In this document: piece after piece, positions 1,312 to 24,050 of the stretch
Layout of the letters: each line of letters opens with the position of its first letter
Numbering within the stretch: position 1 is the first letter of the stretch
Assembly: GCA_963711565.1 (NCBI GenBank)
Contig: CAVQEQ010000001.1
Coordinates: 1,265,217-1,329,216 of the forward strand
Source: an uncultured delta proteobacterium
GTDB lineage: Bacteria; Desulfobacterota; Binatia; Binatales; Binataceae
Length of the DNA: 64,000 nt
Reading direction: 5' to 3'
Position numbers and translations under genes: made by a program
The notes under the pieces: model-generated
Told to the model about the DNA's origin: nothing
What the model saw: the letters and a program-made list of their open reading frames with translations, nothing else
Databases searched by the model: none

Positions 1312-1320
1312 TGGCTAGCC

Positions 1321-2517
1321 TTAGTGACTACTCGCTGCCTGGCCGGCGTCCTGTGCGGTGCCCTGCGATTGCAGTTCGGGATTGACTTCGCGGCCTGGAA
1401 TAGCTTGCAGCAGCCCCTCGGTAACAACTCGATCCTGCGGACTCAGGCCTTCATCAATCACGTACTGTTGACCGATCTGAGTACCGGTTTTTACGCTTTT
1501 GCGCCGAACGATGTTCTGGCTATCTACAACCAGGACGTACTCACCCTGTTCATCGAAGCTCACGGCAGTGGCCGGGATCAGCAGAGCAGGATGCTTCTCG
1601 GGCGCGACCACCCTGACCCGCACGAACAAGCCGGGAACTATGAACGACCCCGGATTGGGAAAGATGCCTCGCAACTGCAGTGTGCCCGTGGTCGGCGCGA
1701 CGCTGAGCGAAGCGAAATCGAGTTTCCCTTGATGCGGATAGCCTTCCTCATCCGTAAGGCCGAAGTAGAACGGGATCGGCTGCGACGGGAGTTCGCCGCC
1801 GGAGGGTTCTTTCATGCGCCGGCGAATCTTGAGCAGTTCGGTCTCAGCAACCGTGAAATAGACGTACATGGGATCGACGCGGTTGATCTCGGCTAGCTGT
1901 ATGTTGGTGCCAGCGCCGACCAGGTTGCCGGGATTTACCAGGTGACGTCCCATCCGGCCATCAAAAGGGGCGCGCACTTCAGTGTAACTGAGGTTCAGCC
2001 GGTCAAGACTGGTCTGTGCCTGGGCACTGGAGAGACCGGCAGCCGCGGCCGCCCGCTCGTACTGCCAGTGATCCACTTCCGTTTGCGTGGCAGCGCCCTG
2101 CTTTTCAAGGCCCTTGTAGCGCGCCAGCTCAGTGGTCGAATGGAATAGTGCTGCCTTCTGCGTCGCGACCTGCGCCAGTGCCTGTTGTAACTGATCTTTG
2201 TACTGTTGCTGTTGAATCGTGAACAGCAGGTCGCCCTTCTTAACCAGCGCCCCGTCGGTAAAGTGGACCTTGTCCAGATAACCTTCCACCCGCGCGACCA
2301 GCGTCACAGAATCCACCGCTACCGTGTTGCCGGTAAAGTCGAGGTGATCCGCTACGTCCTGTGTAACCGGAGTCGCGACCGTAACGGTGGGAGGCGTGAT
2401 GGCTGGGCCGGTCTTCTTTCCGCATGCGGAAATTGCAATCGCCGCCGCCATCAATAAGGCACAATTTCGCAATCGACACGTCCGCAAAGTATTCAAGCTA
2501 TTCAATGAACTGGTCAC
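1321..2517 (-). CDS. RND efflux periplasmic adaptor (membrane fusion lipoprotein)
   Basis: Lipobox ISAC, ARVEGYL..V.F..G..VKKGDLLF, VRAPFDG motifs; directly upstream of the RND permease. Confidence 0.93.
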   Translation of the reverse strand: MTSSLNSLNTLRTCRLRNCALLMAAAIAISACGKKTGPAITPPTVTVATPVTQDVADHLDFTGNTVAVDSVTLVARVEGYLDKVHFTDGALVKKGDLLFTIQQQQYKDQLQQALAQVATQKAALFHSTTELARYKGLEKQGAATQTEVDHWQYERAAAAAGLSSAQAQTSLDRLNLSYTEVRAPFDGRMGRHLVNPGNLVGAGTNIQLAEINRVDPMYVYFTVAETELLKIRRRMKEPSGGELPSQPIPFYFGLTDEEGYPHQGKLDFASLSVAPTTGTLQLRGIFPNPGSFIVPGLFVRVRVVAPEKHPALLIPATAVSFDEQGEYVLVVDSQNIVRRKSVKTGTQIGQQYVIDEGLSPQDRVVTEGLLQAIPGREVNPELQSQGTAQDAGQAASSH

Positions 2518-2524
2518 CGGGTTC

Positions 2525-4143
2525 TCACCATTCGGGCGGCCGGATCAGGGAGCCCTCGTCCTTGGGTGACGGCACCCCTGGCGCGCGTGGCTGCAGGAGT
2601 TCGGGCGAAAGCAGGGTTCCCCAATTTGTGCGATTCGCCATCGTGGCCTGCACCTCTCGCGGCACAAAATCATTGCCTTCCCGAATCTGCCAACCGCCAC
2701 CGAGCGCGCGATATGTCGCGATCAATGCCTGCGGAACGTCTCCCATCTCGATCGCGAGGCTGTTCTGCGCCTGGTAGAGGTTCTGCTCCGCCGTCAGCAC
2801 GGTCGTGAAATCCAGGATGCCCTGGTTGTACTGGATCATCGCGATGTTCAAAGCCCCCTCCGCCGCAATCACGCTTTTCTGGAGAAAATCGACGGCAAGC
2901 CGCGAGTCCACAAACGCGATGATTCCGTTCTCGACCTCCTGCTGAGCCGTCAGCACCTGATTCTGATAGGTGATCTGAAGCTCCTGAAATTTCGCGTCCT
3001 GCACGCGAACGTTGTTGGTGATCTGCCCATAGTTGAGGATATTCCATTGCACGTTGGGACCGACATTCCACGTCAAGCTGCTTCCTGTGAAGACGCTTGC
3101 CAGAGTGCCTCCTGATATCGTTGCCGCCACCGTCGAGATACTACCCGTTAAGTTGAAGGCGGGCAGCAGATCGGCCTTGACGAAACCTATCTGCGCGCAT
3201 TGGGCGGCGGCCTGCAGTTCTGCCTTGCGAAGATCCGGTCGGCGCAGGAGCAGGTCCGCCGGGATACCCACCGCGACCTTGTCCGGCGCAGTGGGAATCT
3301 CCGAACTACCCGCCAGGTATTGGTCCAATGTTCCCGGCGGCATCCCCAGCAGCACCGACACTGCGTTCTTGGTCTGTTGCAGTTGAAGATCCAACTGCGG
3401 GATCGATGCTTGCGTCGTATCAAGAACGTTCTCCGACTGATAGACGTCTCGCTTGGTCGCCGCGCCGCCGCGATACTTTGCGAGCGCGATCTTGTATGCA
3501 TCTCGTTGCCGCACCACGTTGTCGCGCGCAATCATGATCTGCTTTTCGATTGTGCGGATTTGTACATAGTCACTGGCAACGTCGCCGGTCAGCGTCACCA
3601 GCACATCGTCATAGTCGGCTACCGAGGCCAAAAACGAGTAGTCGGCCGTCTCGATTCCGCGCGCAACTTTCCCCATACGTCCAGTTCCCAACCGGCTTGT
3701 GCGCCGAATGAATCCGACCAGTAAGTGTTGCTGAGCAGATGGTACGGCACCGAAATAGGAAGCCGGTTGTAGCTGACCGACGCTCCCACCGACTGCTGTT
3801 GCGGGAAGAATTCACCGATAGCCACGCCCAGTTGCGCACGGGCTTCGAGCACGCGCACACCGGCAGTCATCAGGGTCAGGTTCTGCCGATACGCTACGTC
3901 GATTAGCCGCGTCAGCACTGGATCGTTAAATACCGACCACCAATCCCGATACTCCTGTCGTCCCGTATCGACCGACGCCTTCCCGCCCTCCATCCAAACT
4001 TTGGCGACGGGCGTGGGTGGCGGTTTGTAGTCCGGACCAATCATGCAGGCGCCGGCAACCGCGCTGAGCCCGAGCGCCATCAGCCGAACCAAACCGACAA
4101 GTCTTATTGGTTCGCGGTGCTTAGGCAGTGAATTCTTCAGCAT
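2525..4143 (-). CDS. RND efflux outer membrane lipoprotein (NodT/OprM family), one frameshift near 3670
   Basis: ACMIGPDY lipobox, WWSVFNDPVL, WELDVWGK, PADLLLRRPD, YRALGGGW; split over ORFs 3619..4143 and 2525..3691. Confidence 0.92.
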
Positions 4144-4511
4144 CCAGATGATCCAGGCAGGACATCAGGACAACCAGTGCGAGGGGGCAAGGAGCAGTAG
4201 GCCGGAATTTCTTTTTTGGCTTTCAAAGCTCGATTCCTGCCATTCACCAATCTCAGTGTCAAGTCGCGACCTCCGTGACGATCGCGGCAGGCTCCGGGAT
4301 TCGCGGGTTATCAAAGTTCGAGCCGTTCGACCGCCCGGCGCACGCTCACTCGTGTGCCGACCAGAAACTCGGGCGCACGGCAGAGACACAGGTGGCCGCA
4401 TCGGCCGGTCCATAGGAACGGATCCATTTTTTCGCGTCCGCGTCGTTGTAATTGCCCGGCGTTGGAGCGCAGAGTGCGCGAAGCAGAGTTGAATGCCGAG
4501 TTGAAAACAAA

Positions 4512-9660: not shown

Positions 9661-10482
9661 TTAAGCAACTCGGCCATGGTCGGGTCGTCCGCGCTCAAAC
9701 CGATATCGGCTCCAGACCTTAATCGCCCGGAAAACGAAGTAATCGACAGGCTCAACGACTGGTTCAAGCGCTGCAGTCGCGGCGTGTTTCCGAAGAGCCT
9801 CAAGCCCTCTCTGAAAATGGGAGTCGTTCAATTGAGCCAGGATCGAGTCCGCGCGGAGAGCGAGGCGCTCCGCATAATCAGACCAGTCTCTAGCGGCTTC
9901 ACTTTGAATAAGCTCATGCCGCATCGGCTCGAAACCGGCTGTCACGAACGTCAACTCGATAACCGCCCGCCGATTCAGGCTCCTTTCGAGCATATCTCGG
10001 GTTTCGGGGAAGAACGGGACGAAGGCGTAATTGTCAATCTGTTCAATCGTGCCCGCTCGCAGACAGGCGACGCGATCACGCCGCAACACTCGGCGGCATT
10101 CTCGTATCGCCGCGGCAGCGTCTCTGAAATGGTGGAAAACCATCGACAAGAAGACCATCTCTACGGTTTCGTTGGCCAATGGGAGCGATTCTCCGGAAGC
10201 ACGGACGAGCGATACCCGGCTACTAGATTTCCTCTTCGCTTCCGAAAGCATTTTCTCCGATGGTTCTATTCCGATGACGTGCGCGTTCAATCAACTCGAG
10301 AGCCCAGCCGAATAGCGACCCGTTCCGCAGCCAAGGTCCAATATAACTCTGACCGATGCGTTTCCGAGCGAGTCGGCGAGGACCTCCAGCCACCGGCCGA
10401 GTTGCTCAGGACTATAACTCCGACCACGATCGTAACCGGCGGCCATATTCGTTTTGTCGTAATCCACTCTGCTGACTGCCAA
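9661..10482 (-). CDS. Class I SAM-dependent methyltransferase, frameshift near 10290
   Basis: ILDLGCGTGR motif I in 10291..10482, continuing VIGIEPSEKML...ESLPL...VFHHF in 9661..10290. Confidence 0.88.
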
Positions 10483-10791
10483 ATAACAACTATAAGCGGG
10501 GCACTCCAGGGAAATGGTCCGCTACTTGCTGATGATCCGTCCGTCGCCGGCACGAATTATGGCGAACCGCATCGGATGGAACAGCGACTCACCTCTGTCA
10601 GCGTCAGAATGCAAGATCGTCGAAGTCTTCTTGTGCTCCTTTGACGATCCTGGCGTACTCTCGATATTCAGGACGTAATTCAGCCGTTAACTCAGAGAAT
10701 GTCTTCAGAGTAGCATCTTTCGATGCGACGAGAGGCGGTGTCGATTATCAGAACGGGATAGAATTATTCCCGAGGGGAGTTGGAGGTAATC

Positions 10792-10863
10792 ATGAACAAT
10801 AGAGGTTCCCAGCTCACAAAGATCGCGCTTGCCTTGTCTCTGTGTATCGCGATCCTCGCGGGT
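10792..10863 (+). pseudogene. Orphan signal-peptide stub of a truncated secreted protein
   Basis: GGAGGT RBS then MNNRGSQLTKIALALSLCIAILAG; this frame then runs out of frame into the CadC-like gene. Confidence 0.5.
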
Positions 10864-12828
10864 CCGAGCCTGTCGACCTTGCGCACATCGCCGATTTCAA
10901 CCTCGGCGGCCTGGAGGTCAGTCCTTCAAGGCGCCAGGTAGTACGCGGGGATGATCGCGAAACGCTGGAGCCCCGGGTGATGCAGGTTCTGGTGGCCCTC
11001 TGGCAGGCGAATGGACAGGTCGTTTCCCGCGACGATCTGATCGCCCGTTGCTGGGAAGGCCGGATCGTGGGCGAAAGCGCCATCAACCGGGTCACGTCCC
11101 TGTTGCGCAAATTGTCCGAGAGCAATGGTGGCGTCGACTTCAGCATCGAAACGATTCCGCGGGTCGGCTATCGGCTGACGGCTGGGTCTGAAGTCGGGCC
11201 ACTTGGCCGCCGATCCGAAACGGAGATTGAGGCGGCGTGGCCGATGCTTCGGCGGCGCTGGGCGACTTCGCGCGCTTCATGGGCCGTTATGGGCGTCGTT
11301 CTCGCTACCGGGGCAGGTCTTTGGCTCTCGCACGATCGGTTGCCCTGGATGCCCGGCCCCGGGAAGCCCGGGTCGCCGTACTGCCATTCGACATCATCGG
11401 TCCGGGAAAGGAATTGCACGGCCTCGCCGACGGCCTGCTCGACGAAATCGTCGGCCAGTTATCGGATAGCCAGATACAGGTGGTTTCCCCGGCGAGAGCA
11501 AGACTCTGCGCGGCAAGGATCCCGAGGCAATCGACCGGTTGGGCGCCGACATGGTGCTCGATGGCACAGTGCAAGGCGATGGAAAGGCCATCGACGTTCG
11601 CATCCATCTCAATGACGTCCGCGAGCATGTGGTTCTCTGGTCCGGCGAATTCCATGGGTCTGCCGACGCAACCGAGACACTTGAGGCAAGCGTCGCCGCC
11701 CAGGCCGCCGATGTCCTCTATTGGGCCAGGACCGGGCGGTCCGGAAAGGTGAAGCTAGATGCGGCAACTTTTGCTGCCTTCATCGCCGGCCGCGAGGGCA
11801 CGACCGGGGTGCGCAATACCGGCGACGGCGTGGATTTGGCCGACTATCGCAAGGTCGTTGCCGCGGCGCCGGACTTTTCGTGGGGCCACTCCGGGGTCGC
11901 GGCAATGGAAGGGTTTGAGTTGCGGGAATCTAGCCGGCATTGTACGCCGGCAACGATGCCCTGCGCGCCGATGCGCGGTTGGAGGCAAAACGAGCCCTGG
12001 CGCTGGATCCCCACAATGGAGAGGCCTGGATGGCGCTGGAGTTGTCCGCGCCGCTACGCGATTGGCAGGGACGGGAGGCATTACTGCTTCATGGCATCGC
12101 CGCCGATCCGAATTTCGAGCCGATCGCGATGATGGAAGGCCGCCTGCTCTGGGCTGTCGGTCGCGGACAGGGACGCGCTGTTTGGCTCCGACGCGCGCAC
12201 GATATCGATCCCCTTTTTAACGGCGCGACCTGGTCGCTGGCTATAAACCTGGCGTCGGAGGGCCGTCTGGCGGAAAGCCGCGCGATTGTCGCACGGATGG
12301 AGCTTCAATGGCCCGATCATGGCGCTACCAAGGATGCGCGCTTCTGGACGAATGTCCTCGCAGGCGCGACAGACGACGCCCTGGCTCTGCTGGCCGATCC
12401 CCCACACGCCCCCCCGAAATGGATCAGAAGTCGGCCGACGCCTGGCGCGCGGCGCTGAAGGCCAGTGCCTCGAAGGATCCAGCGGCCAAGACCGGTGCCA
12501 TTAGAGAGGTAATGGATGCGGCCAACGCCGGTTCACTCGAGCCCGGTCAGGCGCTGACGCTTCTGGCGATGCTGGGCGATCTCGATGGCGCCTTTGCCCA
12601 GGCACAGCTTTACGAACCGCTCGACTTTCTGCGCCGCCCTATCTGTTCCTGTCGACGACCGCGGCCATGCGTTCCGATCCGAGGTTCATTCCCCTGGCGC
12701 GCAAGCTCGGCCTGGTCGCCTACTGGCGCGCCACCGGCCAATGGCCGGACTTTTGCAACGAGCCGGGCCTGCCTTATGACTGCCGCGTCGAGGCGACCAA
12801 GGTTGTCGCCCAATTACGCCGCCCCTGA
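10842..12828 (+). CDS. CadC/OmpR-like winged-helix - TM - TolB-like/TPR transmembrane transcriptional regulator, frameshifted
   Basis: LEPRVMQVLVAL...VVSRDDLI.RCW.GRIVGE.AINR...IETIPRVGYRL; VAVLPFD; RALALDP; C-terminus GLVAYWRATGQWPDFC...C, stop at 12828. Confidence 0.85.
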
Positions 12829-12873
12829 ATACGCCAGAGGTCTGTTGAGATCGACCAGCGGCGGCCGGCCCGA

Positions 12874-12901
12874 ATGCCGGCTTTGGGTTAAAAGCAGTCA
12901 T
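12874..12901 (+). repeat. 28-bp 11+6+11 palindromic site, copy 1
   Basis: ATGCCGGCTTT GGGTTA AAAGCAGTCAT, 45 bp after stop of + strand CadC-like gene. Confidence 0.75.
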
Positions 12902-12954
12902 TCGGCCTGTATTAATTGCGGGCAGTCTAGGCGTAGCACCACGTTAACGGTCGT

Positions 12955-13266
12955 ATGAGAACGTCGGCGCCTCATCTGTTTGGGCCCGCAAGCATGGAGT
13001 TCCTGGTTGCTATCCTGGCCTCATGCTTCGACCCGATCCGCCTCGGCCTAGCGGTCGCAGTCGGATGCCTATTCTACGCGGAAATGCCCAAACTGGCATG
13101 GGGCATTTTTCTCTTTGTTCTGCCAGGTGTGGCCGCGCTTGCAGTGAGAAATGGTCACGGACTGTTATTCGATTCGGTAGCGCAATTCATTGCTGCGGGC
13201 TTGGTAGTGCTGGCTATTTACTGGTTCCTGGAATTCCGTAAGGCTCGTTCGAGCCGCAAGGTCTAG
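12955..13266 (+). CDS. Small hypothetical membrane protein
   Basis: 103-aa ORF with 3-4 hydrophobic segments and a basic tail. Confidence 0.6.
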   Translation: MRTSAPHLFGPASMEFLVAILASCFDPIRLGLAVAVGCLFYAEMPKLAWGIFLFVLPGVAALAVRNGHGLLFDSVAQFIAAGLVVLAIYWFLEFRKARSSRKV

Positions 13267-13369
13267 CTCCCAACAGTCTAATTTTAGAGACCACCCACGA
13301 GCGAGACTGTTAGGCCAGCCCGAGAAAAAATGAATGACGGCCTAGCGTGTTGATGATAGTATTTTCGAC

Positions 13370-13591
13370 ATGCTCCAATTCACTCGCAATACGGCTGCCT
13401 CCCTTGCTACGGAGGGGCACATATTCTGCGCAGGAACGCTCGCTCAGTGCCTACACCGCTGGAATAAACTGCCGCCTGAAAAGAAGGCATTAGCGTTCTT
13501 AAAGATGGGACGCGATGGGGTCGCGCCCACTATTTTGCGGGGCGAGCAAGTTGCCGAACTCGCCGGTAATCCAGAGCTGCTACGAGCCTAA
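13370..13591 (+). CDS. Hypothetical protein (73 aa)
   Basis: ATG-start ORF with protein-like composition in otherwise intergenic DNA. Confidence 0.55.
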   Translation: MLQFTRNTAASLATEGHIFCAGTLAQCLHRWNKLPPEKKALAFLKMGRDGVAPTILRGEQVAELAGNPELLRA

Positions 13592-13673
13592 GCTGCTAAT
13601 TGGATGCGCGGTCTGGCAATAATTGCTGTCAAGCACGGCGATTTCAGATCGCTTCGAATGTTAATAACCATTG

Positions 13674-13701
13674 GCGGCCGCTTTGCACCAATAGCGGACA
13701 T
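13674..13701 (-). repeat. 28-bp 11+6+11 palindromic site, copy 2
   Basis: + strand GCGGCCGCTTT GCACCA ATAGCGGACAT, 2 bp beyond stop of - strand gene at 13704. Confidence 0.85.
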
Positions 13702-13703
13702 CC

Positions 13704-14143
13704 CTACCGACACGCGAAATCGTCGGCGCCGACGGGATGGCAGAATTCTGGCCAGCCGCGCGCGCGCCAATATTCGACCAAATGGGCTTTGCGCACGAAC
13801 GCCTTGAAGCGCTCCGTTTTGCGCAAGGAAGCGCTTGGGGGCCACCAAACCTTTTCAATAGCCCAGTGGACGTAATCTGCCGCAAATCCGCGTTCAGCAA
13901 ATTCGAGGGAGCGGCCCTCCGCGCCGATATATAGATAGACGAACTCCACGTCCGGCCCCAACGCAGGGAGCGTATCCGGTGCGCTGGCCTTCGCAGGAGC
14001 GGACCGCATAAGCCTCGCCCCATCGTCCAGGGGCCGACGGAAATCGATGTTCCGTCGAGGCCATGGAGTTGAGGCTATAAGCGTATCGGCCGCTTGCGCA
14101 TAGCGACCCGCCGCCGCATATGCATAGGCTAGGGCCTTTAGCC
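13704..14143 (-). pseudogene. 5'-truncated C-terminus of a TolB-like/TPR sensor protein
   Basis: LAYAYAAAGRYAQA TPR and end HLVEYWRARGWPEFC.P.G.DDFAC, resembling the end of 10842..12828; no N-terminal domains. Confidence 0.75.
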
Positions 14144-14144
14144 T

Positions 14145-14366
14145 CAATCGCACGCCCTCACCGGTGGAATTGCCATCTTACTTAAAAGCACCTTCGGCGC
14201 CGTTGCGGATTTCAGCTTCCTATCCGAAAAGGATTGGGCAAATCTCGATATCGAAATTGCGGCCATGATGGGAGCGGAGGACGCGCCGTGGCCATTCGTT
14301 GCGAAGCGAAAAGGAATTGCTCTTCTTATGGCATTCGCATTGCAGGGCATCGAACAAAACACCTAG
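14145..14366 (+). pseudogene. 5'-truncated paralog of hypothetical protein 15458..15823
   Basis: Manual translation HALTGGIAILLKSTF...DWANLDIEIAAM...KGIALLMAFALQGI aligns without gaps to HARSGAIAILLGELF...DWKSFNDEIARM...KGIALLMTWAVEGI; in-frame TAG just upstream. Confidence 0.8.
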
Positions 14367-14557
14367 CCGATGTTCCGCCCACGGGCCCTCTCCCAACCAA
14401 GCGCCACAAGTGTAACGTCGTGATCTAAACGAGCCCTAAGGCTGGCCGTTTGCGCTGCACCTGAAGTTAGCGCAGGATAAGTCGTACGCATGAGCCGATC
14501 AGGGGGCCGGCTGCGTTGGTTGACATCCGCGCCCTCCGCGCTGGCCAGTGGAAAGCA

Positions 14558-15397
14558 ATGAAGACCCCTTCCAAAGTTCGTATCCCGGGGAGGATCGCAG
14601 CGGAAATCGGCAGCGATATCGTTTCCGGTCGCCTGCTACCCGGAACGATCCTGGAAACGGAATTGGAGGCAAGCAGTGGGCGCAATGTGTCCCGCTCGGC
14701 CTATCGCGAAGCCGTTGGCAAGCTGGTCGCAAAGGGCCTGGTCGCGTCCCGGCAGAAAGTCGGTACGCGCGTCACGGAAGCCACGCAATGGCACCTTCTG
14801 GACCCAGATGTCCTCAGCTGGATGTTCAGTAGTGAGCCACGGAGGGACCTGCTCGCTTACCTCTTTGAACTTCGCAAAATGGTTGAGCCCGAAGCAGCGG
14901 CTCTGGCTGCGGCGCGGCGCAGGACGCAGGAGCTGCACGCCATGGCGCGGGCGCTAAAAATCATGACAGAGGAAACCCTGCATACCGACCGCGGACGGCT
15001 TGCCGATCATGACTTCCACGCAAGTCTTTTGGCGGCTTCGGGTAACCCGTTTCTCATTTCACTGTCCACAAGCGTCACCGCCGCGGTGACCTGGAGCACG
15101 AAGTTCAAGGATCGCACTCATCGCCTGAAGCGAAATGCCATACCGGACCATGTTCGCGTCTATGATGCCATTGCGGCGGGTGATGCGAAGGCCGCACGAA
15201 AGGCCATGACACGGTTAATCGAACTGGCCCTCTCGGACTTCGATCCAGGTGCGCCGGAAAACTCCGCCGGCACGCTCCCACCGCTGATCTCTTTAAGGCG
15301 GGCGGCACCACCGCAGCGGCGGACACCTGACCCTGGGTCACAAATGCGTCTCTCATTTTGTCCGACTTTATTACAGGCAGGTCATTTGGCAAGGTGA
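14558..15397 (+). CDS. FadR/GntR family transcriptional regulator (C-terminal tail may be a frameshift extension)
   Basis: VSRSAYREAV..L.AKGLV.SR.KVGTRV...W.LLDPDVL.W; FCD domain ELRKMVEPEAAALAA, D.DFH..LL.ASGN. Confidence 0.92.
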   Translation: MKTPSKVRIPGRIAAEIGSDIVSGRLLPGTILETELEASSGRNVSRSAYREAVGKLVAKGLVASRQKVGTRVTEATQWHLLDPDVLSWMFSSEPRRDLLAYLFELRKMVEPEAAALAAARRRTQELHAMARALKIMTEETLHTDRGRLADHDFHASLLAASGNPFLISLSTSVTAAVTWSTKFKDRTHRLKRNAIPDHVRVYDAIAAGDAKAARKAMTRLIELALSDFDPGAPENSAGTLPPLISLRRAAPPQRRTPDPGSQMRLSFCPTLLQAGHLAR

Positions 15398-15415
15398 CAG
15401 GGTGCCCGCGTTGCC

Positions 15416-15432
15416 GTATTGTCCGACAATAC
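15416..15432. promoter_or_regulatory. Putative FadR-type operator palindrome
   Basis: Perfect GTATTGTC-C-GACAATAC; second partial copy TTGTCCGAC at 15358-15366; fits FadR-subfamily TTGT-N3-ACAA style. Confidence 0.6.
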
Positions 15433-15457
15433 GTTCGGTTATTAAGCGGCGCCTTGC

Positions 15458-15823
15458 ATGACCTTGGGGACTGATAACAGCACTTTGGAGACTGATACTG
15501 GTCGCGCCGACTCGAACGCGGAAAAGTATCGATTGCTCCTGTCAGAGCTCATTGCGCTGGTGGACACAAGAAGATGCGAGGAGCTGAACGTCGAGGACGT
15601 AATGCTTCATGCCCGCAGTGGCGCAATCGCCATTTTATTGGGCGAGCTATTTCAGAATACGGGTAGCTTCAACGTCTTCACCCAAAATGATTGGAAAAGC
15701 TTCAACGATGAGATTGCGCGCATGTCGAATGCGGCCGATCCGCCTCAGAAGATCACGGTGACAAACAAGGGCATTGCCCTCCTCATGACCTGGGCGGTCG
15801 AGGGGATACGGCGACAAGCCTAG
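15458..15823 (+). CDS. Hypothetical protein (has paralog fragment at 14145..14366)
   Basis: 121-aa ORF; coding status supported by the diverged paralog. Confidence 0.75.
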   Translation: MTLGTDNSTLETDTGRADSNAEKYRLLLSELIALVDTRRCEELNVEDVMLHARSGAIAILLGELFQNTGSFNVFTQNDWKSFNDEIARMSNAADPPQKITVTNKGIALLMTWAVEGIRRQA

Positions 15824-16102
15824 TAACAGTGACATTCCACCGACGACGAGAGCCGACGCTGGTCTTCACCCCTTAGCGCAAAGGTAGGACGCCGATCGGA
15901 TCACGCTCTACTCCATAGGCCTGTCTTAATGTCGAACTTCACCTTGCCTGCAGACCGCATTTGCATCAGAAGATCTTGCTGCTGCCTGGGTCGAGCAGTT
16001 TTTGTAGCGCATAGACGGCGCGAGGTTTGTCCAGCGCCGCCAGCACGTCTTGTTCTCGTGTCACGAACAATGCCCTCTCGATTTCTTCATCATTTCGCTC
16101 GA

Positions 16103-16130
16103 ATTCCGCCTTTGTGCCAATAGCGGACAT
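16103..16130 (-). repeat. 28-bp 11+6+11 palindromic site, copy 3
   Basis: + strand ATTCCGCCTTT GTGCCA ATAGCGGACAT, 50 bp beyond sulfatase stop. Confidence 0.85.
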
Positions 16131-16180
16131 TCGGACCTTGCCGACGCGCTGATGTAAAGGCGCTCTGACGACTGCGTCTG

Positions 16181-17562
16181 TCAATCTTGCGATAGCTGCT
16201 CCTTGAGCAATTGTTGCATCCGGTCGCGAAAAACCTTGGGCGGGCGCTTTGCTTTTAAGGGGCCAAACTTGGCGCGGGCGGCTTTCATTCGCTCCTGCAT
16301 ATCCGCAAGCGCCGCCGGCTGGATGGCGGCGACGCTGTAGCTCTCGGAAATATCCTTGCTGACGTCATACAGCTGCGGATAGCCCACACCTTCCGTCGAA
16401 GCGAGCGCCCCCCGATAATGCGAACGGGTGGCATACTTCCAGCGCTGGGTGCGGACCGCCACGACCTCCTCGTCATTGAACAGCAGCAATTGATCGTGCG
16501 GCGAGGCGGCGCCGTTGGCCAGGACCGCCGAAATGTCGAGGCCATCGAGCTCGACGCCTGCCGGATTGGCAATGCCCGCCATCGCGCAAAAGGTGGGCAG
16601 AAAATCGATACCCATCGCGATGGAATTGGTGCGTATTCCCCGTTTTACGACACCGGGCTGGCGGGCAATGCAGGGCACGCGATAGCCGCCATCATAGGCC
16701 GCGCCGCCCTTGCGATCGCGCAGACCGCCGGTCGAGCCTTCATACCAGGGGCCGTTATCGGACGTGAAGATCAGCAACGTGTCGCGCTCAAGTCCCAGAG
16801 CCTTCAAACGCTCCATGAGGCGGCCGACAATGGTATCGATTTCCACCACCGTGTCGGCATAGAGCCCTTGCATGGTTTTGTCGCGGAACTTTGCATTCGG
16901 ATAGTTCGGCAAATGGGGCGCACTCAGCGCCAGTTCGACAAAAAATGGCTGGTCCGCATGATCGGTGATGAATTTTCAGTCGGGCGTAGAACCGTTGCTG
17001 CAGCTCGTCTTCAATCGCGTCTTCTCGCGTCGGCTCCTGATCCGGGCCGTTGTCCGTGTACAGCGCCAACGGCTTCATGTCGTGGCTGTACTGCAGGCCA
17101 AAGAAATGATCGAAACCGTGGTGGGTCGGTGCCCAAGTGGGGCCGGTATGACCCAGGTGCCATTTGCCGAATAGCGCGCTGACATAACCCGCCGGTTTGA
17201 GCGCCGCCGCAATTGTCACTTCGGAAAGTGGCAGGCGCCGGTCGTCATTCGGCAAGATCACGCTATAAGCCAGGCCGGTGCGGATCGCGTAACGCCCCCA
17301 GTCAGCAAGCCAGCGCGGGAGGGCGTGCAAATATTCTGCGGCGCGTAATAATCCGTCAGAACATTTCCCTCCTGCGCCAACCGGTTGATGTTCGGCGTAT
17401 GGATGGCCTTTCCGCCTTCCGGTTCGATATCCCCCCAGCCCAGGTCATCGCAGAGGACGATGATGAAATTAGGCTTACGCCGGCTCTCAGCCACCGCCTC
17501 GCCATTGACCGTTAGCGCGGCCACGGTTGCGGCCGTTGCACTCAGAAACCCCGGCGCTCCAT
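16181..17562 (-). CDS. Cys-type arylsulfatase with Tat signal, frameshifted
   Basis: MERRGF(L) twin-arginine start; [48 protein letters not shown]. Confidence 0.92.
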
Positions 17563-17608
17563 TCTTCGATCTCCCTTGATCTGCGGCGAAAATGTGAAAT
17601 GTCCCTGC

Positions 17609-19218
17609 CTACTTGGCCGCTGCGGGCTCGGCGCAGATGAAGCTCGACGCGTCATTGATGTCGCCGGTTCCTCTGTATTTCGCGGCCTTCGGGAAAACGC
17701 ATAATGGCCGGGTCATCTCGACACCTTTCGCGCGGTCGTTGTCGACGATATTTCGTCGCGATGATCCGTTTCGGCGCGTACGCCTTTTTCGACCCACTGT
17801 TCCAGCGCGGCCACCACATCATGGTCCGCGTCGCCATCGCCGCCGGTCTGACCGAATTGATTGGGGCCGGGGCCGCCCCCGCAATGGCCCATGCCGGGCA
17901 CCATGAACAGGCGATAGAAATCCTGGGTCTTGTCCCAGCCGCCCGCGCCTTTCTGGGCGGCCACCGCGTTTTTGTAATAGTCCACTGTTGCAAATGGCGA
18001 AATGTCCGAATCCGCCCAGCCGTGATACGAGATGAGTTTGCCGCCATGCGCCTTGAACCCGGTGAAGCGTCGGTCGGTCGCATCCATGATCGTGCCCATC
18101 GCTTTTTTGGAGTCGCGCGGGCCTTTTGTCTGGATCAAAATTCATGAAAGTCCCATTTCGGGTCGTGATAAACTAGGTTTGCGAAGGTCTCGTTTGCCAT
18201 TATGCCCCCGCCTGGCTTTGTCATGGGCCTCCGCGAAGTTGGGGCCCGCGAAATACTGGGCCCACCCGACGCTTTCGCTGCCAAACGGCATGCCTGGGAA
18301 AATCTGGCTTGCCCGAGCTTGTCTTCGGCCCGTCATGCAGGGCCTGGTAGGTCTTGAGCTGCGCCGGAGTCAGCGGAAGCGACGCCGGATCGATGCGGCA
18401 TTGCCTGGGATCGGCAATCAGGCCGTCTTTGACGCCGTCCGCCGCGTCGCATGCTCGATCGACCGCGTCGCCGACCTTCTGGATGTCGGCCGGCGAAATA
18501 TAGCCGGCCTCGGATGCATAGGAATGCCTTCATGTTCGCGGCATCGCCGGCGTGCTGACTCGGCCCATTGGTTCCCCGGGTCGCCGGCGGCAATGCCGTC
18601 AAAATCATCCGGATAGCGCTGCGCCTCCGTCAGCGCTTCCCGCCCGCCCGTGGAACAGCCAATGAAATAGGAATATTCAGGTTTCCTGCCATAGAACGCA
18701 GCGGTGACAGCTTTGCCGACTGCGGCCGTCAAGTGGACGGCGCGGTAAGCCGAAATCGATGAGTTTCTCCGGATGCCCCAGGGCCCATTCCGCGCTGCGT
18801 GTTCGTGGCCGTCTCATGCCCGTCGTCCGTGCCTGCCACGGCAGATCCCGCCTTAAGGGGGCGCGGCCATGGCGCCAAGAGGATATGGCTCCCGCGAAGC
18901 CGCCATTGCCGACGGATTCATAACGCCCGGTCCAGCCCGTCTGCGGCAGCCAGACCTCGAATTTGATGTCGGAATCGCCGGTCGGCTTGATGGTGCCGCC
19001 GACACGGCAAAAGGCGACCGGTAAGGGTTTTGTCCCGGCCCCGGATCTGGCGGCGTGAACGTGCCGGCGGCCTCCGGCTGCGCCATGGTGATCGTCGTTC
19101 CCGGCAGCTTGAGGTCGGTTAGGCTCTCGCAGCTTGCTGCGAAAGCGGGATTTTCTGCGAACGCTGCCGAGGCCAGCAGGAACGCGGTCAGACCAAGCGG
19201 CATGCGATAGTTGGTCAT
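17609..19218 (-). CDS. Tannase/feruloyl esterase family hydrolase, heavily frameshifted
   Basis: IKFEVWLP..GW.GRY..VGNGGFAG, GCSTGGRE, AQRYPDDFDGI.AG, HGWAD, FYRLFMVPGMGHCGGG, TRPLC.FP. Confidence 0.92.
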
Positions 19219-19273
19219 GGCATTTTCCCATCTGAATGATTGGCAAACAAGATCAGTCTTTTCGATATCGGTT

Positions 19274-19301
19274 TCGTCCGCTTTGCGCCAATAGCGGACA
19301 T
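19274..19301 (-). repeat. 28-bp 11+6+11 palindromic site, copy 4
   Basis: + strand TCGTCCGCTTT GCGCCA ATAGCGGACAT, 19 bp beyond stop of SnoaL-like gene. Confidence 0.85.
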
Positions 19302-19320
19302 TTTTCGGCAATTAAATGCC

Positions 19321-19806
19321 CTAAGGCGCGGCCTGGGCCATCTCGCGGATGGACTGCCAGCCGGTCGGGCTTTCCTTTGACTTCACATAGACCACCATGG
19401 CGCGTCCGCGGGCAACGGTCGGGCTGCCGCCCGTTTTCGGCGTAGTCTTTATCGTAAAAATGCTCGTTTCGACCGCGGTATCGCCGAGAAAGACCATGCT
19501 TTCCAGCCGGTGCTCCACGAACTCCATCTTCACATTGCGGAATGTCTTAGCCAGGCCGCGCTGTAGTTCTTGCCGGCCGTTCACGACATTTGTTCCGCCG
19601 AAATATTTCATTACATCCGGACGATGCAGGGCAACGATTGCCGCCACGTCCCCGCGTCCGAAGCCATCGCGTATCGCCTGAGTGGTGCGCTCCAACGATT
19701 GCCGGTCCGAGCGGCTCCCGCCGGAAATAGCGTCCGGCGGTTCCTGGGCCTTTGCCGGGCTATTCAGGCCGCCAGCAAACAAGCAACGCAGCGAAGATAG
19801 CGCCAT
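19321..19806 (-). CDS. NTF2-like/SnoaL (DUF4440-type) exported protein
   Basis: F.RGDVAAIVAL..PD...GR..L; GDTAVE; terminal GWQSIRE beta pattern. Confidence 0.8.
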   Translation of the reverse strand: MALSSLRCLFAGGLNSPAKAQEPPDAISGGSRSDRQSLERTTQAIRDGFGRGDVAAIVALHRPDVMKYFGGTNVVNGRQELQRGLAKTFRNVKMEFVEHRLESMVFLGDTAVETSIFTIKTTPKTGGSPTVARGRAMVVYVKSKESPTGWQSIREMAQAAP

Positions 19807-19972
19807 ACCGCATCGTCCACCTTCCTGTTTGACAATGAAGCGAAGCCCCTTTCGTCGGGCCAGAACCCGGAAATCATCGCTGCCGCCAAGATGGGCATCG
19901 CAAATTGGTTTCGACCTGGCGGCGTGTCAAGGTCAGGCGTCAGAAAATTCACTTTTGGGGCAAAATGGAAAT

Positions 19973-20000
19973 ACCTCCGCTTTGGGTCGGGAGCGGACCT
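19973..20000 (+). repeat. 28-bp 11+6+11 palindromic site, copy 5
   Basis: ACCTCCGCTTT GGGTCG GGAGCGGACCT, upstream of ThuA-like gene. Confidence 0.75.
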
Positions 20001-20153
20001 GTCCCGTGGGTGCGGATTGCGTGCAGCATAGGGAAGGCCCACCGGAACGTCGCCATGTTGTGACCGATTGATTTTGACTGTCCTTCCTTAGACCATGGGG
20101 TTATCGGGGGCAGATGGCGCATCGATTGAAATGAACCGAAGCAGGAGAGATCA

Positions 20154-21148
20154 ATGCAAAACTTCTGGAAAATGGCCGGGCGCGCCGCCCTGGCGGTCGC
20201 GATCCTAATGGGCGCCGCAGGTTCGATGGCAGGCTTTGACGGCGCCAGAGCGCAAGGCTCGGCGCCAGTCAAGAAAATCGTCTTCTGGGCGGGACCGAAG
20301 GAGCACGGCGTTCCCGGCCGGCATGAATATGAGCGGGACTTGACCGAGCTAGCCTGGCAACTTGAACACGCCACCAATCTGCGCGGCGTAAAGACGTTGG
20401 TGAAGGTCGTCACCAAACCGCCCCGAGATATCAGCGAACTCGACGATGCTGATGCCCTGGTGATCTTCGGCAACGGCGCCTGGCTCAAGACCGAGACCGG
20501 CATCCTTTTCCCGCAAGATCAGGATACCGACGGGCGCACCTATGACGCGGAGCATACCGACTGGCTGAACAAGCTTGATGCGGTGATAAAGAGCGGAAGA
20601 TGGGTTTGGCGATCTTCCATTACACCATGTGGGTGGATAACTGGGTCGGCAAGCGCTTCCTGATGGACTGGTTCGGCGGCAACTGGCTACCCTATTCCTC
20701 ACACAATCCGGTGGACACCTGGACGGTATCGCCGCTGCCTGTGCGTCATCCCATCCTCAATGGCATACAGCCCTGGACGTATCGTGACGAAATGTTCTCG
20801 CGTTATTTCCTCTACCACGATCCGCGTCGCACCGAGTTGATGCAGGCCATGCCCGCCACAGCGAGCAACGGCGGGCCCGATCCGGTCTCCTGGATTTTCA
20901 ATCGTCCCGATGGCGGCCGTTCTTTCGTCTGGGGCGGCTCTGACTTCCACGACAACATGCACAATGTCGCCGCCTACCGGAAATACCTGCTCAACGGCAT
21001 CGCCTGGATCGCCGGCCTCGAAGTGCCTGCAGAAGGGGTCAACGCACCGGCGCCCCCTGCAGATGATCCGCCCATTCCAGCGACACCACCCGGACGCCAT
21101 GGGCCTGGGCCCGGGCCGGCTGGAACGCCAGTAGCACCTGCGCCTTGA
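20154..21148 (+). CDS. ThuA-like (trehalose utilisation domain) exported protein, frameshift near 20600
   Basis: KKIVFWAGPKEHG.PG.HEYE; HPIL.GI.P...RDE; PVSW.F.RPDGGRSF; RKYLLNGIAW.AGLEVP..G. Confidence 0.82.
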
Positions 21149-21173
21149 GGCGCCGGCAATCGTTCAGATCCGC

Positions 21174-21200
21174 AATTCCGCTTTGGTCAAAAGCACGCCA
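21174..21200 (+). repeat. Degenerate copy 6 of the palindromic site
   Basis: AATTCCGCTTT GGTCA AAAGCACGCCA (spacer one base short), 25 bp after ThuA stop. Confidence 0.55.
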
Positions 21201-21428
21201 AAAGACCACTCACTCTGATTTATTTATCAATTTGAACACGCGCCAACAGCGGCGGATTGTAAGACGGTGCCCCTGGATGTCACTTAATTGGGCGGCTTTT
21301 CGTAGACCCCTTTGATACCCGGGCGCACGTGGGCGATGACCCTTGCCGGGGAGCCATTTCTTTCAAAAAAATACAGCAGCCCGCGGTTGGACCGGACGGG
21401 CCGCCGTGCGTGATCCCCTTCCCGACCT

Positions 21429-21818
21429 TCAGTTCGCACCCCGTTGGCGGCCGGAGCTTGGCGTGTAGTTGGGTGACCAGGGGCCTGCCGTCACATGGCC
21501 CTGCGTATTCCAGAGCGGGCCGAGATCTTTCTTTTCGGCGGCATCATAGGCCGCCTGGAGATCAGGCGTTGAAGCCGGATCGAGCTGGCCGCCCGGGCCC
21601 TGGAAGCATTTGAAGTCCGGACGATTGACCCAGGCATAGGGACCGCACAGATATTTGTGGGCGCGCAACGCCGCGTCATGGACGATATTGATCTCGCGCT
21701 CGTAATCCGGATCGCCCTGCTTGTAGCCGGCGAAATTGCCCAGGTCCGAGGATGCGGCAAACACCCCGTCGACGCCCGGCAGGGCCGCTATTTTATCCGC
21801 GTCCTTCAGGCCATCGAG
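21429..21818 (-). pseudogene. C-terminal fragment of HpcH/HpaI aldolase family protein
   Basis: LDGLKDADKIAALPGVDGVFAASSDLG; in-frame TGA at 21825-21827 upstream, so the 5' part is missing. Confidence 0.75.
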
Positions 21819-21875
21819 CCGGCGTCATGCAAATCGGGGCAATCGGCGTTAAGATGAATGGGTGAGGATTGCTGG

Positions 21876-22961
21876 ATGGCTTTAGAGGCTGCTTACCTTC
21901 CGCGAGTGTGGCTGGGCACGAAAGTATCGGAAAAGTTGTTGCCGGCTGCGGCGCGTCCTTTGGCTGCGCACATAAAGCTGACGGAAAATTGCCAAGCTAA
22001 GTGCGTTAGCTGCGATTACTGGAAATCGCGCTGGGAAGATCATATCGATACGGACCGAGCGATTGATTTGATCAATCAGATCGCGGCCGCGGGAATCCGG
22101 AATTTGCGGCTGACCGGCGGCGAACCCTTGCTGCGCATGGATTTGTTTCGGGTACTGAAAGCGGCGAACACTTCTTCTTTTCACAAAATAATTTTGCAAA
22201 CCAACGGGCTGCTGATCAAGAAATTACACAAAGAGATCAACGATTCGCCGATTACCCATGTAGCGGTGTCCATCGATGGATTGAAAGAGACCAACGATCA
22301 GATTCGCGGAATTCGCGGATATTTTGATCTGGGCATGGAAGGGTTGCGGCTGCTGAAGGATAAGGATCTGGCGATTTCGATTACATTGAATAAGGTTTCG
22401 GCGGCGGAGTTGACGCGACTACACGAAACGGCGCGCAGCGTGGGCGCGCGGATGGAAACGAATATTTTGAGCCGCAGCCTGTTCTTTTTTAAGGATGCGG
22501 ATATTGATTCGATCTGGCCGGCAAAAAACGATGTGCCGCAGATTACCAATTTTATGCGGGACACTTTACAACGGCCGAGCTACGAAGTGGATTACATCAC
22601 GGATTATTACAATCACGAGGCCGTGAACGAGCCGGCCTGCGTGCTGGGATTTCTGCAGGTTTTCGTACTGTCCAACGGTGATGTTTTGACGGGATGCTAC
22701 CCCTTGCCGCCGGTTGGGAATGTGTTGAAGGATTCGTTGGCGAATATTCTGGCGTCGGACGCGTATATGAAGCAGAGCGCGGCGATGTTGCGGCGGGAAT
22801 GCCCGGGATGTACTTGCGGGGTGGAGAGTTCGTTGGCGATGCAGCATGCGGGATCCAGCGCGTTTTATGAGCTGGGGAAATTGATGAATCGCGGAAAGAA
22901 GAAAACCCCGCCTCCGGTGCGTGTGCCGGCGGAGAATGATTCGCAGTTGCGGGTGCTTTGA
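21876..22961 (+). CDS. Radical SAM protein with C-terminal SPASM/twitch-like domain
   Basis: CQAKCVSC, LTGGEPLL, TNG, VSIDG; C-terminal C...NGDV..C.....GN...CPGCTC. Confidence 0.92.
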   Translation: MALEAAYLPRVWLGTKVSEKLLPAAARPLAAHIKLTENCQAKCVSCDYWKSRWEDHIDTDRAIDLINQIAAAGIRNLRLTGGEPLLRMDLFRVLKAANTSSFHKIILQTNGLLIKKLHKEINDSPITHVAVSIDGLKETNDQIRGIRGYFDLGMEGLRLLKDKDLAISITLNKVSAAELTRLHETARSVGARMETNILSRSLFFFKDADIDSIWPAKNDVPQITNFMRDTLQRPSYEVDYITDYYNHEAVNEPACVLGFLQVFVLSNGDVLTGCYPLPPVGNVLKDSLANILASDAYMKQSAAMLRRECPGCTCGVESSLAMQHAGSSAFYELGKLMNRGKKKTPPPVRVPAENDSQLRVL

Positions 22962-22966
22962 GGCCG

Positions 22967-23230
22967 CAGGGGCTAAAGCCCCTCGTGTGATGCGTCGTTA
23001 ACGGCCCGACTAAAGTCGGGCCCTCCTGAAAACCCTTCGAACGATCGGCCGACTCAAGACTGCCCGACTAAGGTCGGGCCCTCCCGAAAACTCTTCGAAC
23101 GAACGACTGACTCAAGTTAGGCTCCCCAAATCCTTCGAATGATCGGCCGACGTGAGTTGCCCCTCCGAAAATCTTTCAAACACGGATCGACGCAAGAGCG
23201 GCCCGACTGAAGTCGGGCCCTCCCGAAAAA
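22967..23230. repeat. Tandem REP/BIME-like array
   Basis: GGGGCTAAAGCCCC then three GCCCGACTRARGTCGGGC hairpins (23003, 23062, 23200) with recurring linker CCCTCCYGAAAAC.CTTCGAACGATCGGCCGAC. Confidence 0.8.
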
Positions 23231-23236
23231 AAAGAC

Positions 23237-23274
23237 AAAAAAAGCGAGCCGCGGTTGGCGGCTCGCTTTTTTTT
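23237..23274. terminator. Bidirectional intrinsic terminator
   Basis: A7-GCGAGCCGC-GGTTG-GCGGCTCGC-T8 between convergent genes. Confidence 0.9.
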
Positions 23275-23336
23275 GTGAAAAACAGTTTTACAAAAACGGC
23301 GAACTACTTGAAATACCGTTTTACAGGTGCGGCGAA

Positions 23337-24050
23337 CTACTTGTTGGCGGACTTGTTCACGCGCGCGTGCACATTGAGCGTGCTAACCAAACGCTGGCCG
23401 GAGGGCGGGGTGCGAACTGCGCCTCCGAAGATAATCTCTTTGGCGGAGACTTTCTTGCCATAGAGGCGTTCGTTGGCGTCATTGTCCGGGCGGACGGTCG
23501 AGCCTTCCAAAGAGATACCGGCGAACAGGCCGCGCGAACGGGAATAGGAAAGAATCTCCGCGCGCATGGTTACGTCAGATTCCGCGGATGCGCTGCGGCC
23601 CTTGGGGCCAGCGGCGACCGACGCGTCACCACCGAGCTTGACCTTGCTGCTGAGAATGCCTTGCGCGCCGCGGTCGTTCATGACCAGTAGTACGAAGTCG
23701 GTGGCTTGGCCGCCGATTTGGAAGCCGAAACTGCCGCCTTCCAGAGCCATCATCGAAGGAGCGCTCCAGGGGCCTTTGAAGTTGGTGCCGGTGCGGCAGG
23801 TCATTGCGCCGCGGCCATAGCTGCCGCCGACGATAAACGCGGCCTTCAGCACGGAGGGGTACACGATGACGCATTCCGCTTTGCTGAGCAAATCCTGAGG
23901 AATGTCGTCTGGTACGTTCAAAATTTCCTTCATGACGGTGCCGCAGTTGAGCAAGCGGTCGGCATCTTTGGTGGTGTCATCATCGGCAGCCAAGATCGGC
24001 GCCACGCACATGGCAAAAGTCAAACATCCAGCTATCCATCGCTTCATCAA
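23337..24050 (-). CDS. Ysc84/SYLF lipid-binding domain exported protein
   Basis: KAAFIVGGSYGRG, GGSFGFQIGGQATDFVL, LGGDASVAAGPKGR, SYSRSRGLFAGISLEG. Confidence 0.93.
   Translation of the reverse strand: MMKRWIAGCLTFAMCVAPILAADDDTTKDADRLLNCGTVMKEILNVPDDIPQDLLSKAECVIVYPSVLKAAFIVGGSYGRGAMTCRTGTNFKGPWSAPSMMALEGGSFGFQIGGQATDFVLLVMNDRGAQGILSSKVKLGGDASVAAGPKGRSASAESDVTMRAEILSYSRSRGLFAGISLEGSTVRPDNDANERLYGKKVSAKEIIFGGAVRTPPSGQRLVSTLNVHARVNKSANK

Follow-up and report, generated by a model that had tools for sequence, protein, structure and literature searches.

The stretch of DNA considered here, referred to as the window, is 64,000 nt long (positions 1,265,217 to 1,329,216 of contig CAVQEQ010000001.1, called C1 below, in GenBank assembly GCA_963711565.1 of an uncultured delta proteobacterium) and forms the final 64 kb of that contig. 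A block of ~11 kb within it contains six copies of a 28-bp palindromic element, hereafter the site, set between genes of unrelated function (Table 1). A sequence-only reading of the window had described these as oriented recombination-like sites, each with two 11-bp arms around a 6-bp core, delimiting the modules of a gene-cassette system. All six were found where that reading placed them, five intact and the last a base short. The 11+6+11 geometry was likewise supported; both arms follow a single consensus, ATGTCCGCTWT, and the cores sort into a class A (GGGTCA) and a class B (G[TCG]GCCA).

Table 1. Sites and modules of the block, in window coordinates
Feature	Position	Strand	Remarks
Likely Rhizomicrobium-like fragment (approximate)	10860..21825		contig loose ends at 10863 and 21819; HpcH/HpaI aldolase cut at right edge
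Class A site, core GGGTTA	12874..12901	+	25.7 bits; 45 bp after stop of frameshifted winged-helix/TPR gene
A-B junction with two orphan open reading frames	12902..13673		772 bp; 17 bp in empty doublets
Class B site, core GCACCA	13674..13701	+	26.3 bits; 2 bp from stop of minus-strand TPR gene remnant
B-B module	13702..16102		TPR remnant (-), GntR/FCD regulator (+), 121-aa orphan (+), frameshifted 60-aa conserved small gene (-)
Class B site, core GTGCCA	16103..16130	+	28.0 bits; 50 bp from sulfatase stop
B-B module: sulfatase and tannase genes	16131..19273	-	both frameshifted in assembly
Class B site, core GCGCCA	19274..19301	+	37.2 bits, best copy; 19 bp from SnoaL stop
Canonical B-gene-A cassette: DUF4440/SnoaL gene and upstream region	19302..19972	-	Pfam
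Class A site, core GGGTCG	19973..20000	+	22.7 bits
A-A module: 325-aa secreted-type gene, earlier called ThuA	20001..21173	+	frameshifted; no Pfam match
Class A site, degenerate	21174..21201	+	one base short; right arm gone past AAAAGC

Scored with a matrix trained on 790 sites, all from loci other than the window, the five intact copies reach 22.7–37.2 bits, while only one of 400 shuffled 250-bp windows reached 16 bits. The copy at 21174 scores -3.7 bits ungapped, with one base missing from core or arm; the extra base is present in the corresponding site of a relative. A consensus scan of the window allowing up to three mismatches gave three matches (two sites), against none in 100 shuffles. 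No further site was found in the rest of the 4.84-Mb genome, where the best score is 19.6 and thus below the maximum of a 2-Mb shuffle (21.8). Five of the sites do lie near stop codons (at 45, 2, 50, 19 and 25 bp). They are not typical terminators, with 11 terminators predicted against 10.9 in shuffles and none at a site, nor are they attC sites, no RYYYAAC or GTTRRRY motif occurring on either strand within 150 bp of the six. An Rfam scan of positions 10000–23500 gave three weak matches, none at the sites.

The description of the sites as separating unrelated cargo was also upheld. As to the names given to that cargo, Pfam matches bear out GntR/FCD, sulfatase, tannase and DUF4440/SnoaL, while neither half of the supposed ThuA gene has a Pfam match, and an intact homolog has none either. 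Several of the frameshifts in the sulfatase and tannase module are positions where independent contigs have indels. Homologs of the SnoaL gene with 83–92% DNA identity share the gene and its upstream region and lack the sites. The small gene at 15900–16075 on the minus strand is a frameshifted copy of a conserved, unannotated gene of 60 amino acids (aa), which has no sites in four of four fetched relatives.

Beyond the window, the sites form a widespread proteobacterial family, located between accessory genes and marking where gene neighborhoods differ between genomes. Exact scans found them at no fewer than 135 genome loci (mostly in Alphaproteobacteria, among the 80 listed) and at 117 viral loci, with 498 unique sites in the loci scanned and none in 0.3 Mb of shuffled sequence. 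The commonest core was GGGTCA (153), followed by GTGCCA (135), GGGCCA (53), GAGCGA/TCGCTC (32), GGGTCG (17) and GCGCCA (14), in a count for which the genome scan fixed part of the core and the viral scan left it free. Five genomes have between 26 and 473 sites each, and none by reversed-pattern controls. Matches were present in 98 of 301 genomes of one family, which we take to be Micropepsaceae and which includes the Rhizomicrobium record with the best named match to the SnoaL protein of the block, and in 72 of 351 genomes of a phylum sample (background 0–4 per genome), where 26, with genome G004 excluded, count as site-bearing at a threshold of at least three sites.

The mixed orientation that had been proposed for the six sites was not confirmed; it depends on an alignment of the cores as KGGYNN. 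Aligned as G-N-R-Y-C-A, all read in the + direction: GGGTTA, GCACCA, GTGCCA, GCGCCA, GGGTCG and a GGGTCA-like core one base short. Of the 15 core pairs, 12 are more alike when compared directly than when one is inverted, one ties and two are less alike, assuming a base for the gap in the sixth core. Read by the arrangement found in other genomes, the block is A, B, B, B, A, A in a single direction, although calling A and B "direct" is a convention (four of six core positions match, against two of six inverted) and only their fixed relative direction is observed. The supposedly invertible pairs 12874/13674 and 19274/19973 fall away, since each is an A/B pair of unlike cores in standard array orientation. 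The statement that five sites point the same way as the adjacent gene was similarly a product of the convention chosen, because site orientation follows the array and not the gene.

That arrangement was drawn from 16 array regions of two genomes, picked as site-rich, with genes called by a dicodon model of our own. Neighboring sites 150–6000 bp apart are co-oriented in 137 of 145 cases, and close co-oriented pairs run A then B in 46 of 65. Modules mostly extend from B to A (68 of 137), with a median module length of 1.1 kb, and just two A or B sites lie inside called genes. Module ends next to B sites are gene stops in 62 cases and gene starts in 20; in 16 of 84 single-direction modules the gene is reversed with the sites unchanged. 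The overall pattern is [A B]-gene-[A B]-gene, with the gene stop adjoining B and 45-bp A-B doublets as the joints. Doublets with a period of 45–46 bp were seen 49 times, and pairs at 90–91 bp, usually enclosing a third unit, 30 times; apart from a second unit 45 bp away, the flanks of the sites are nearly free of information. Clustering was also evident in genome G292, where 41 of 49 site units have a neighbor within 10 kb (25% expected) and direction agrees in 30 of 32 such pairs.

Some further features of the arrays can be noted. The 17-bp spacer of the doublets, which occur in many loci (e.g., L046 and L053), has a consensus of its own, GTGCAGYGCA, in 52 of them, and the third unit of triplets has an ACCCC-type core, often of seven bases. 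An orientation set by the replication strand, as for KOPS, is not supported, as array direction flips within 30–70 kb. A miniature inverted-repeat element of a DDE transposase was also rejected: none of 198 doublets and triplets has a target duplication of 4 bp or more, and 3-bp duplications number 8, against 3.6 in shuffles. The cargo is a mixture of accessory metabolism, sensing and transport, with Pfam matches at 1e-6 for 28 of 46 proteins, one of them an IS110 transposase. ABC substrate-binding genes (PF04392) recur as stand-alone cassettes (L364, L367 and L369) and make up six of the 46 scanned cargo proteins.

The prediction that breakpoints between genomes would fall in the sites was borne out for P2-like phages and E. 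coli, and in a few alphaproteobacterial cases. In phage P2, fun(Z) lies between a B site at 15333 and a site with core TCGCTC at 17430, and it ends towards the B site as genes in the arrays do. The core of the left Z/fun site, GTGCCA, is that of window site 16103. In comparisons of P2-like phages, homology at the left site (query 134–161) ends in or at the site, at 147–165, in all 24 of the rows reaching it among the 40 of 111 matches listed, 15 further rows covering the tail-fibre gene only. At the right site (query 101–128; 60 of 113 matches listed) homology begins at 97–112 in 55 of 58 non-self rows and at 136–139 in the other three. Of the alignment ends that lie inside sites at phage loci, 26 of 84 are on the last core base. 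In E. coli, a 1-kb cassette found on a plasmid and on chromosomes with 99.6–99.7% identity starts one base before the B core and ends in the far arm of the partner site, among the 40 of 2063 matches listed; the modules next to it start or stop within one base of a core. A recombinase module, considered below, starts at the first core base, plus or minus one, in 30 of the 40 rows listed from 938 matches. The E. coli K-12 record NZ_AKVX01000001.1 contains, near 1645179, a stretch beginning at a partner (TCGCTC) site.

The alphaproteobacterial cases concern relatives of the block itself. At locus L323, homology spans the intergenic stretch, the arm and the core at 21174 and then stops, with two paralogous copies that have different sequence beyond. 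Homology with L331, where an intact TIR-TPR gene lies between two B sites, begins at site 13674, and in L320 a B site, part of an A-B doublet, follows the homologous sulfatase gene.

The candidate enzyme is a tyrosine recombinase of 210 aa consisting of a catalytic domain only. Among 30 integrase loci in five site-rich genomes, three such proteins have sites on both sides, while Xer loci have none. The R-K-H-R-H/W-Y catalytic set is complete, with residues R62, K90, H158, R161, H184 and Y193 invariant in 45 sequences, and a structural model (predicted local distance difference test, pLDDT, 85) matches the catalytic domains of Xer and Cre; predicted without an alignment, the fold has a pLDDT of 32. 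The family is large, taking in all 8000 of 8000 candidates scored and 349 plasmids, and passed no curated NCBIfam cut-off. Site halves of at least 10 bits adjoin the gene upstream in 23 and downstream in 20 of 56 loci left after removal of partial and duplicate genes. The corresponding counts are 6 of 158 and 3 of 157 for flanks farther from the gene, and 1 of 50 and 2 of 50 for other tyrosine recombinases. The recombinase co-occurs with sites in the phylum sample (14 of 26 site-bearing genomes against 40 of 324 others; odds ratio 8.3) and also in the family, where the odds ratio is 10.4 (7 of 19 against 15 of 282), both ratios being uncorrected for kinship. The link between recombinase and site is specific, though it is not proof of catalysis.

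The expectation that the recombinase would lie elsewhere in the source genome failed, a single match at E 6e-4 being all that was found there. When the proteins of the first 250 loci were clustered without bias, none of the 60 largest clusters was a recurrent recombinase, and the top one was an ABC substrate-binding family. At three loci (L374, G005:C6 1463423–1474187; L272; L275) the array reverses its direction at the recombinase gene, which has A sites facing it on both sides. Homologs on Photobacterium and Vibrio plasmids (L391 and L388) lie between defense genes (type I restriction-modification, Drt2, AbiEii) and may use other arms. The available portions of PMC8138268 name no tyrosine recombinase subgroup lacking a core-binding domain.

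Taken together, the sites are probably double-stranded crossover points of a gene-cassette system, recombined by this small (~200–210 aa) tyrosine recombinase. An asymmetric 6-bp core between like arms, with breakpoints at the core edges, is consistent with a homomeric tyrosine recombinase that works on double-stranded DNA, a form of strand exchange established for Xer, Cre and Flp. The enzyme would bind both 11-bp arms and exchange strands at the edges of the core, with like recombining only with like (A with A, B with B). With two core classes, A-by-B events would be blocked and two-crossover exchange allowed, as at the P2 slot, leaving a B-gene-A cassette stable in its own array yet able to be swapped between molecules by two crossovers. 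Alternatively, a cassette could leave as a loop between one junction and the next and enter again at a different like site; insertion at like sites would give rise to tandem arrays. The enzyme would act in trans and often be absent. Of the capture and shuffling platform envisaged by the sequence-only reading, what stands is that sites delimit cargo and contain breakpoints; the invertible pairs do not, and the block appears foreign to the source genome.

Several observations weigh against this interpretation. Non-phage alignments end inside sites in only 5 of 43 cases, exchange in the Alphaproteobacteria rests on few examples, and the loci were fetched for holding a site, which inflates the alignment-end counts, including that for phages. 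Neither a circle nor a rearranged read was seen, nor a contig joint between two window sites. Four of the window cargo genes have close site-free homologs, and the sulfatase, ThuA-like and SnoaL genes are without adjacent sites in most fetched relatives, leaving the first acquisition of sites unexplained. Kinship and genome size inflate the co-occurrence tests. Of the 22 site-rich genomes in the G004 family, 15 gave no recombinase match, five of these having been checked with the whole integrase family, and 7 of 19 recombinase-bearing genomes have no site by the pattern used; the Vibrio and Photobacterium homologs also have no such site. Finally, large island integrases (L277, L406 and L413) and a different small recombinase (L276) also have sites after their stops, so that the candidate enzyme could itself be cargo. 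In the three island cases the distance from the integrase stop is ~10–230 bp, which suggests that arrays can start at island ends.

A different account would make the junction the mobile unit, with an A-recombinase-B element, of the size of an insertion sequence, and its empty A-17bp-B derivative hopping within islands, enclosing genes passively and moving cassettes as a side effect. The recombinase gene is often exactly at the position of the 17-bp spacer, its outer arms are better kept than the inner (23 against 14 upstream and 20 against 7 downstream, of 56), it moves as a unit in E. coli, the doublet and triplet periods are fixed at 45–46 and 90–91 bp, and site-free homologs of the cargo exist. 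We nevertheless think this unlikely: no target duplication surrounds the 198 doublets and triplets, entire cargo cassettes move with both ends at cores, and neither uniform orientation over tens of kb nor the bias of gene stops towards B is expected from independent hops. It is rather more doubtful that these are true recombination sites served by another enzyme (host XerC/XerD, an island integrase or an unrecognized protein), with the small recombinase as one more cassette. The site-rich genomes without a match to it and the sites adjoining island integrase stops would agree with this, as would the 11+6+11 size, the same as that of dif and pdif in PMC6449649. The single consensus of both arms does not, given the distinct XerC and XerD arms of dif, and there is no site near XerC/XerD loci and an enrichment of site halves specific to the small recombinase family. 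Very improbable are hairpins like repetitive extragenic palindromes (REP) or bacterial interspersed mosaic elements, acting on RNA (termination, stability) or spread by HUH enzymes and with no role in moving genes, for while the sites lie near stop codons in hundreds of copies, form mosaic doublets and triplets and in some cases fold at -11 to -12 kcal/mol, they have no T-tract, terminator call or Rfam match, the GTAG-type foot is missing at five of six, the 6-base center is kept in few classes, orientation is independent of gene direction, and breakpoints fall on core edges.

The site is not wholly new. In 2004, Nilsson, Karlsson and Haggard-Ljungquist reportedly described inverted repeats on either side of the Z/fun locus in P2-like coliphages. 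In the GenBank annotation (AJ512682/AJ512685), the 28-bp site (90–117, core GTGCCA) forms the end of the left repeat (3–115) that faces the cargo, and the right repeat starts with the site (core TCGCTC). The arm consensus is matched with 4–7 mismatches; in AJ512682 the right-hand copy has the core but fails an 8-mismatch cut. As in the site family, variable cargo changes at the repeats, in phages and in the few alphaproteobacterial cases. The annotated repeats are, however, 91–113 bp long, phage-specific and confined to a single slot, and only the 28-bp unit is conserved around the window cargo; the family in turn has tandem chromosomal arrays, metabolic cargo, the partner class GGGTCA in place of TCGCTC, and a candidate enzyme attached. 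PMC8987985 states that the Z/fun repeats allow site-specific exchange of fun, and the repeats are also cited in PMC9122126, PMC6379469 and bioRxiv 10.1101/2021.01.21.427644. The system had been presented as a candidate novel one; its site is partly known, as the inner end of these repeats, and what lies behind it is likely a cassette system. A search of listings of the open literature, with subscription papers such as the 2004 Z/fun paper outside its scope, gave no account of the 28-bp unit, of its arrays or of an enzyme for them.

Other systems offer partial parallels. Integrons and integrase-less attC clusters have tandem, co-oriented arrays of mostly single accessory genes, often far from an enzyme or without one; the present sites differ in a fixed short geometry suited to double-stranded recombination and in cassettes that keep their upstream regions. 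There is no IntI-type integrase in the block, and the candidate recombinase has no match to TIGR02249 or PRK15417 at E 0.001. Small tyrosine recombinases of the FimB/FimE type have ~200 aa and only a catalytic domain, like the candidate, and engineered cassette exchange uses non-crossing lox or FRT pairs, comparable to two core classes that would not cross-react. The candidate has no match to the NCBIfam tyrosine-invertase models (1e-47 for a FimB-like control), and no invertible switch was seen. Compared with the known Xer arms, the two like arms of the site have an unrelated consensus and show no division into distinct XerC and XerD arms; the candidate enzyme is a small, mobile, homomeric recombinase and not the host Xer pair. 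The resemblance to the pdif/dif modules of Acinetobacter, as set out in PMC6449649, lies in the 28-bp length, the 11+6+11 layout, two clusters of central sequences, and accessory-gene modules that move between plasmid and chromosome.

We tentatively suggest that, in Alpha-, Beta- and Gammaproteobacteria, these sites may constitute a third natural cassette platform beside integrons and dif modules, with a catalytic-domain-only enzyme, two non-crossing 28-bp classes, and, in soil Alphaproteobacteria, chromosomal libraries that run from dozens to hundreds of accessory genes, and that the enzyme may be the missing one of the P2 Z/fun defense hotspot. If true, this would explain how plasmids, islands and prophages of the P2-like and lambdoid kinds swap accessory and anti-phage genes at fixed slots; such a mechanism was reportedly proposed in 2004, and the citing passages available do not name an enzyme. 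It would also give the Alphaproteobacteria a cassette store on the scale of integrons that a simple 28-bp scan can find, and make a 210-aa recombinase with naturally orthogonal sites a compact engineering tool. As one gene and two site classes are named, the proposal is testable with a one-plasmid reporter.

The window itself contributes little more than one decayed example, along with a warning that contig ends can be chimeric. No two of its cores are identical, and the copy would be largely frozen. The block is likely a Rhizomicrobium-like fragment within a chimeric, error-rich contig tail. Window positions 1–4344 are a 97.5% copy of 279159–283500 on another contig, C2; farther along there are second, divergent versions of prfB (61% to that of the genome itself), ahcY (70%), PiT (69%) and gltB (44–47%), and tetranucleotide use deviates in all six 10-kb bins. 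The best named match to the SnoaL protein, at 89%, is in Rhizomicrobium, and block DNA matches 197 of the 301 family genomes; among 40 relatives of the source genome, two have a single match. The aldolase, 330–380 aa in relatives, is cut at ~21825, where an independent contig continues into other sequence.

Three soil studies supplied short contigs that match the block in part, at 95–100%, have indels at several of the frameshifts, and bridge the sites at 12874 (12795–12946), 19973 (19762–20164) and 21174 (21025–21238). Joints in two contigs (near 12863 and within the tannase gene) were set aside for sides shorter than 30 bases, and read runs with small word shares were excluded as habitat evidence. 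Since soil contigs bridge three sites, the DNA of the block and at least three of its junctions are real; the cut aldolase, the second housekeeping copies and the Rhizomicrobium matches make its placement in the source genome likely wrong. Other findings from the window call for the same caution. Unrelated REP-like palindromic repeats occur in other foreign pieces of it, at 23001–23255, 50954/51583, 56240/61118 and 26226/41493.

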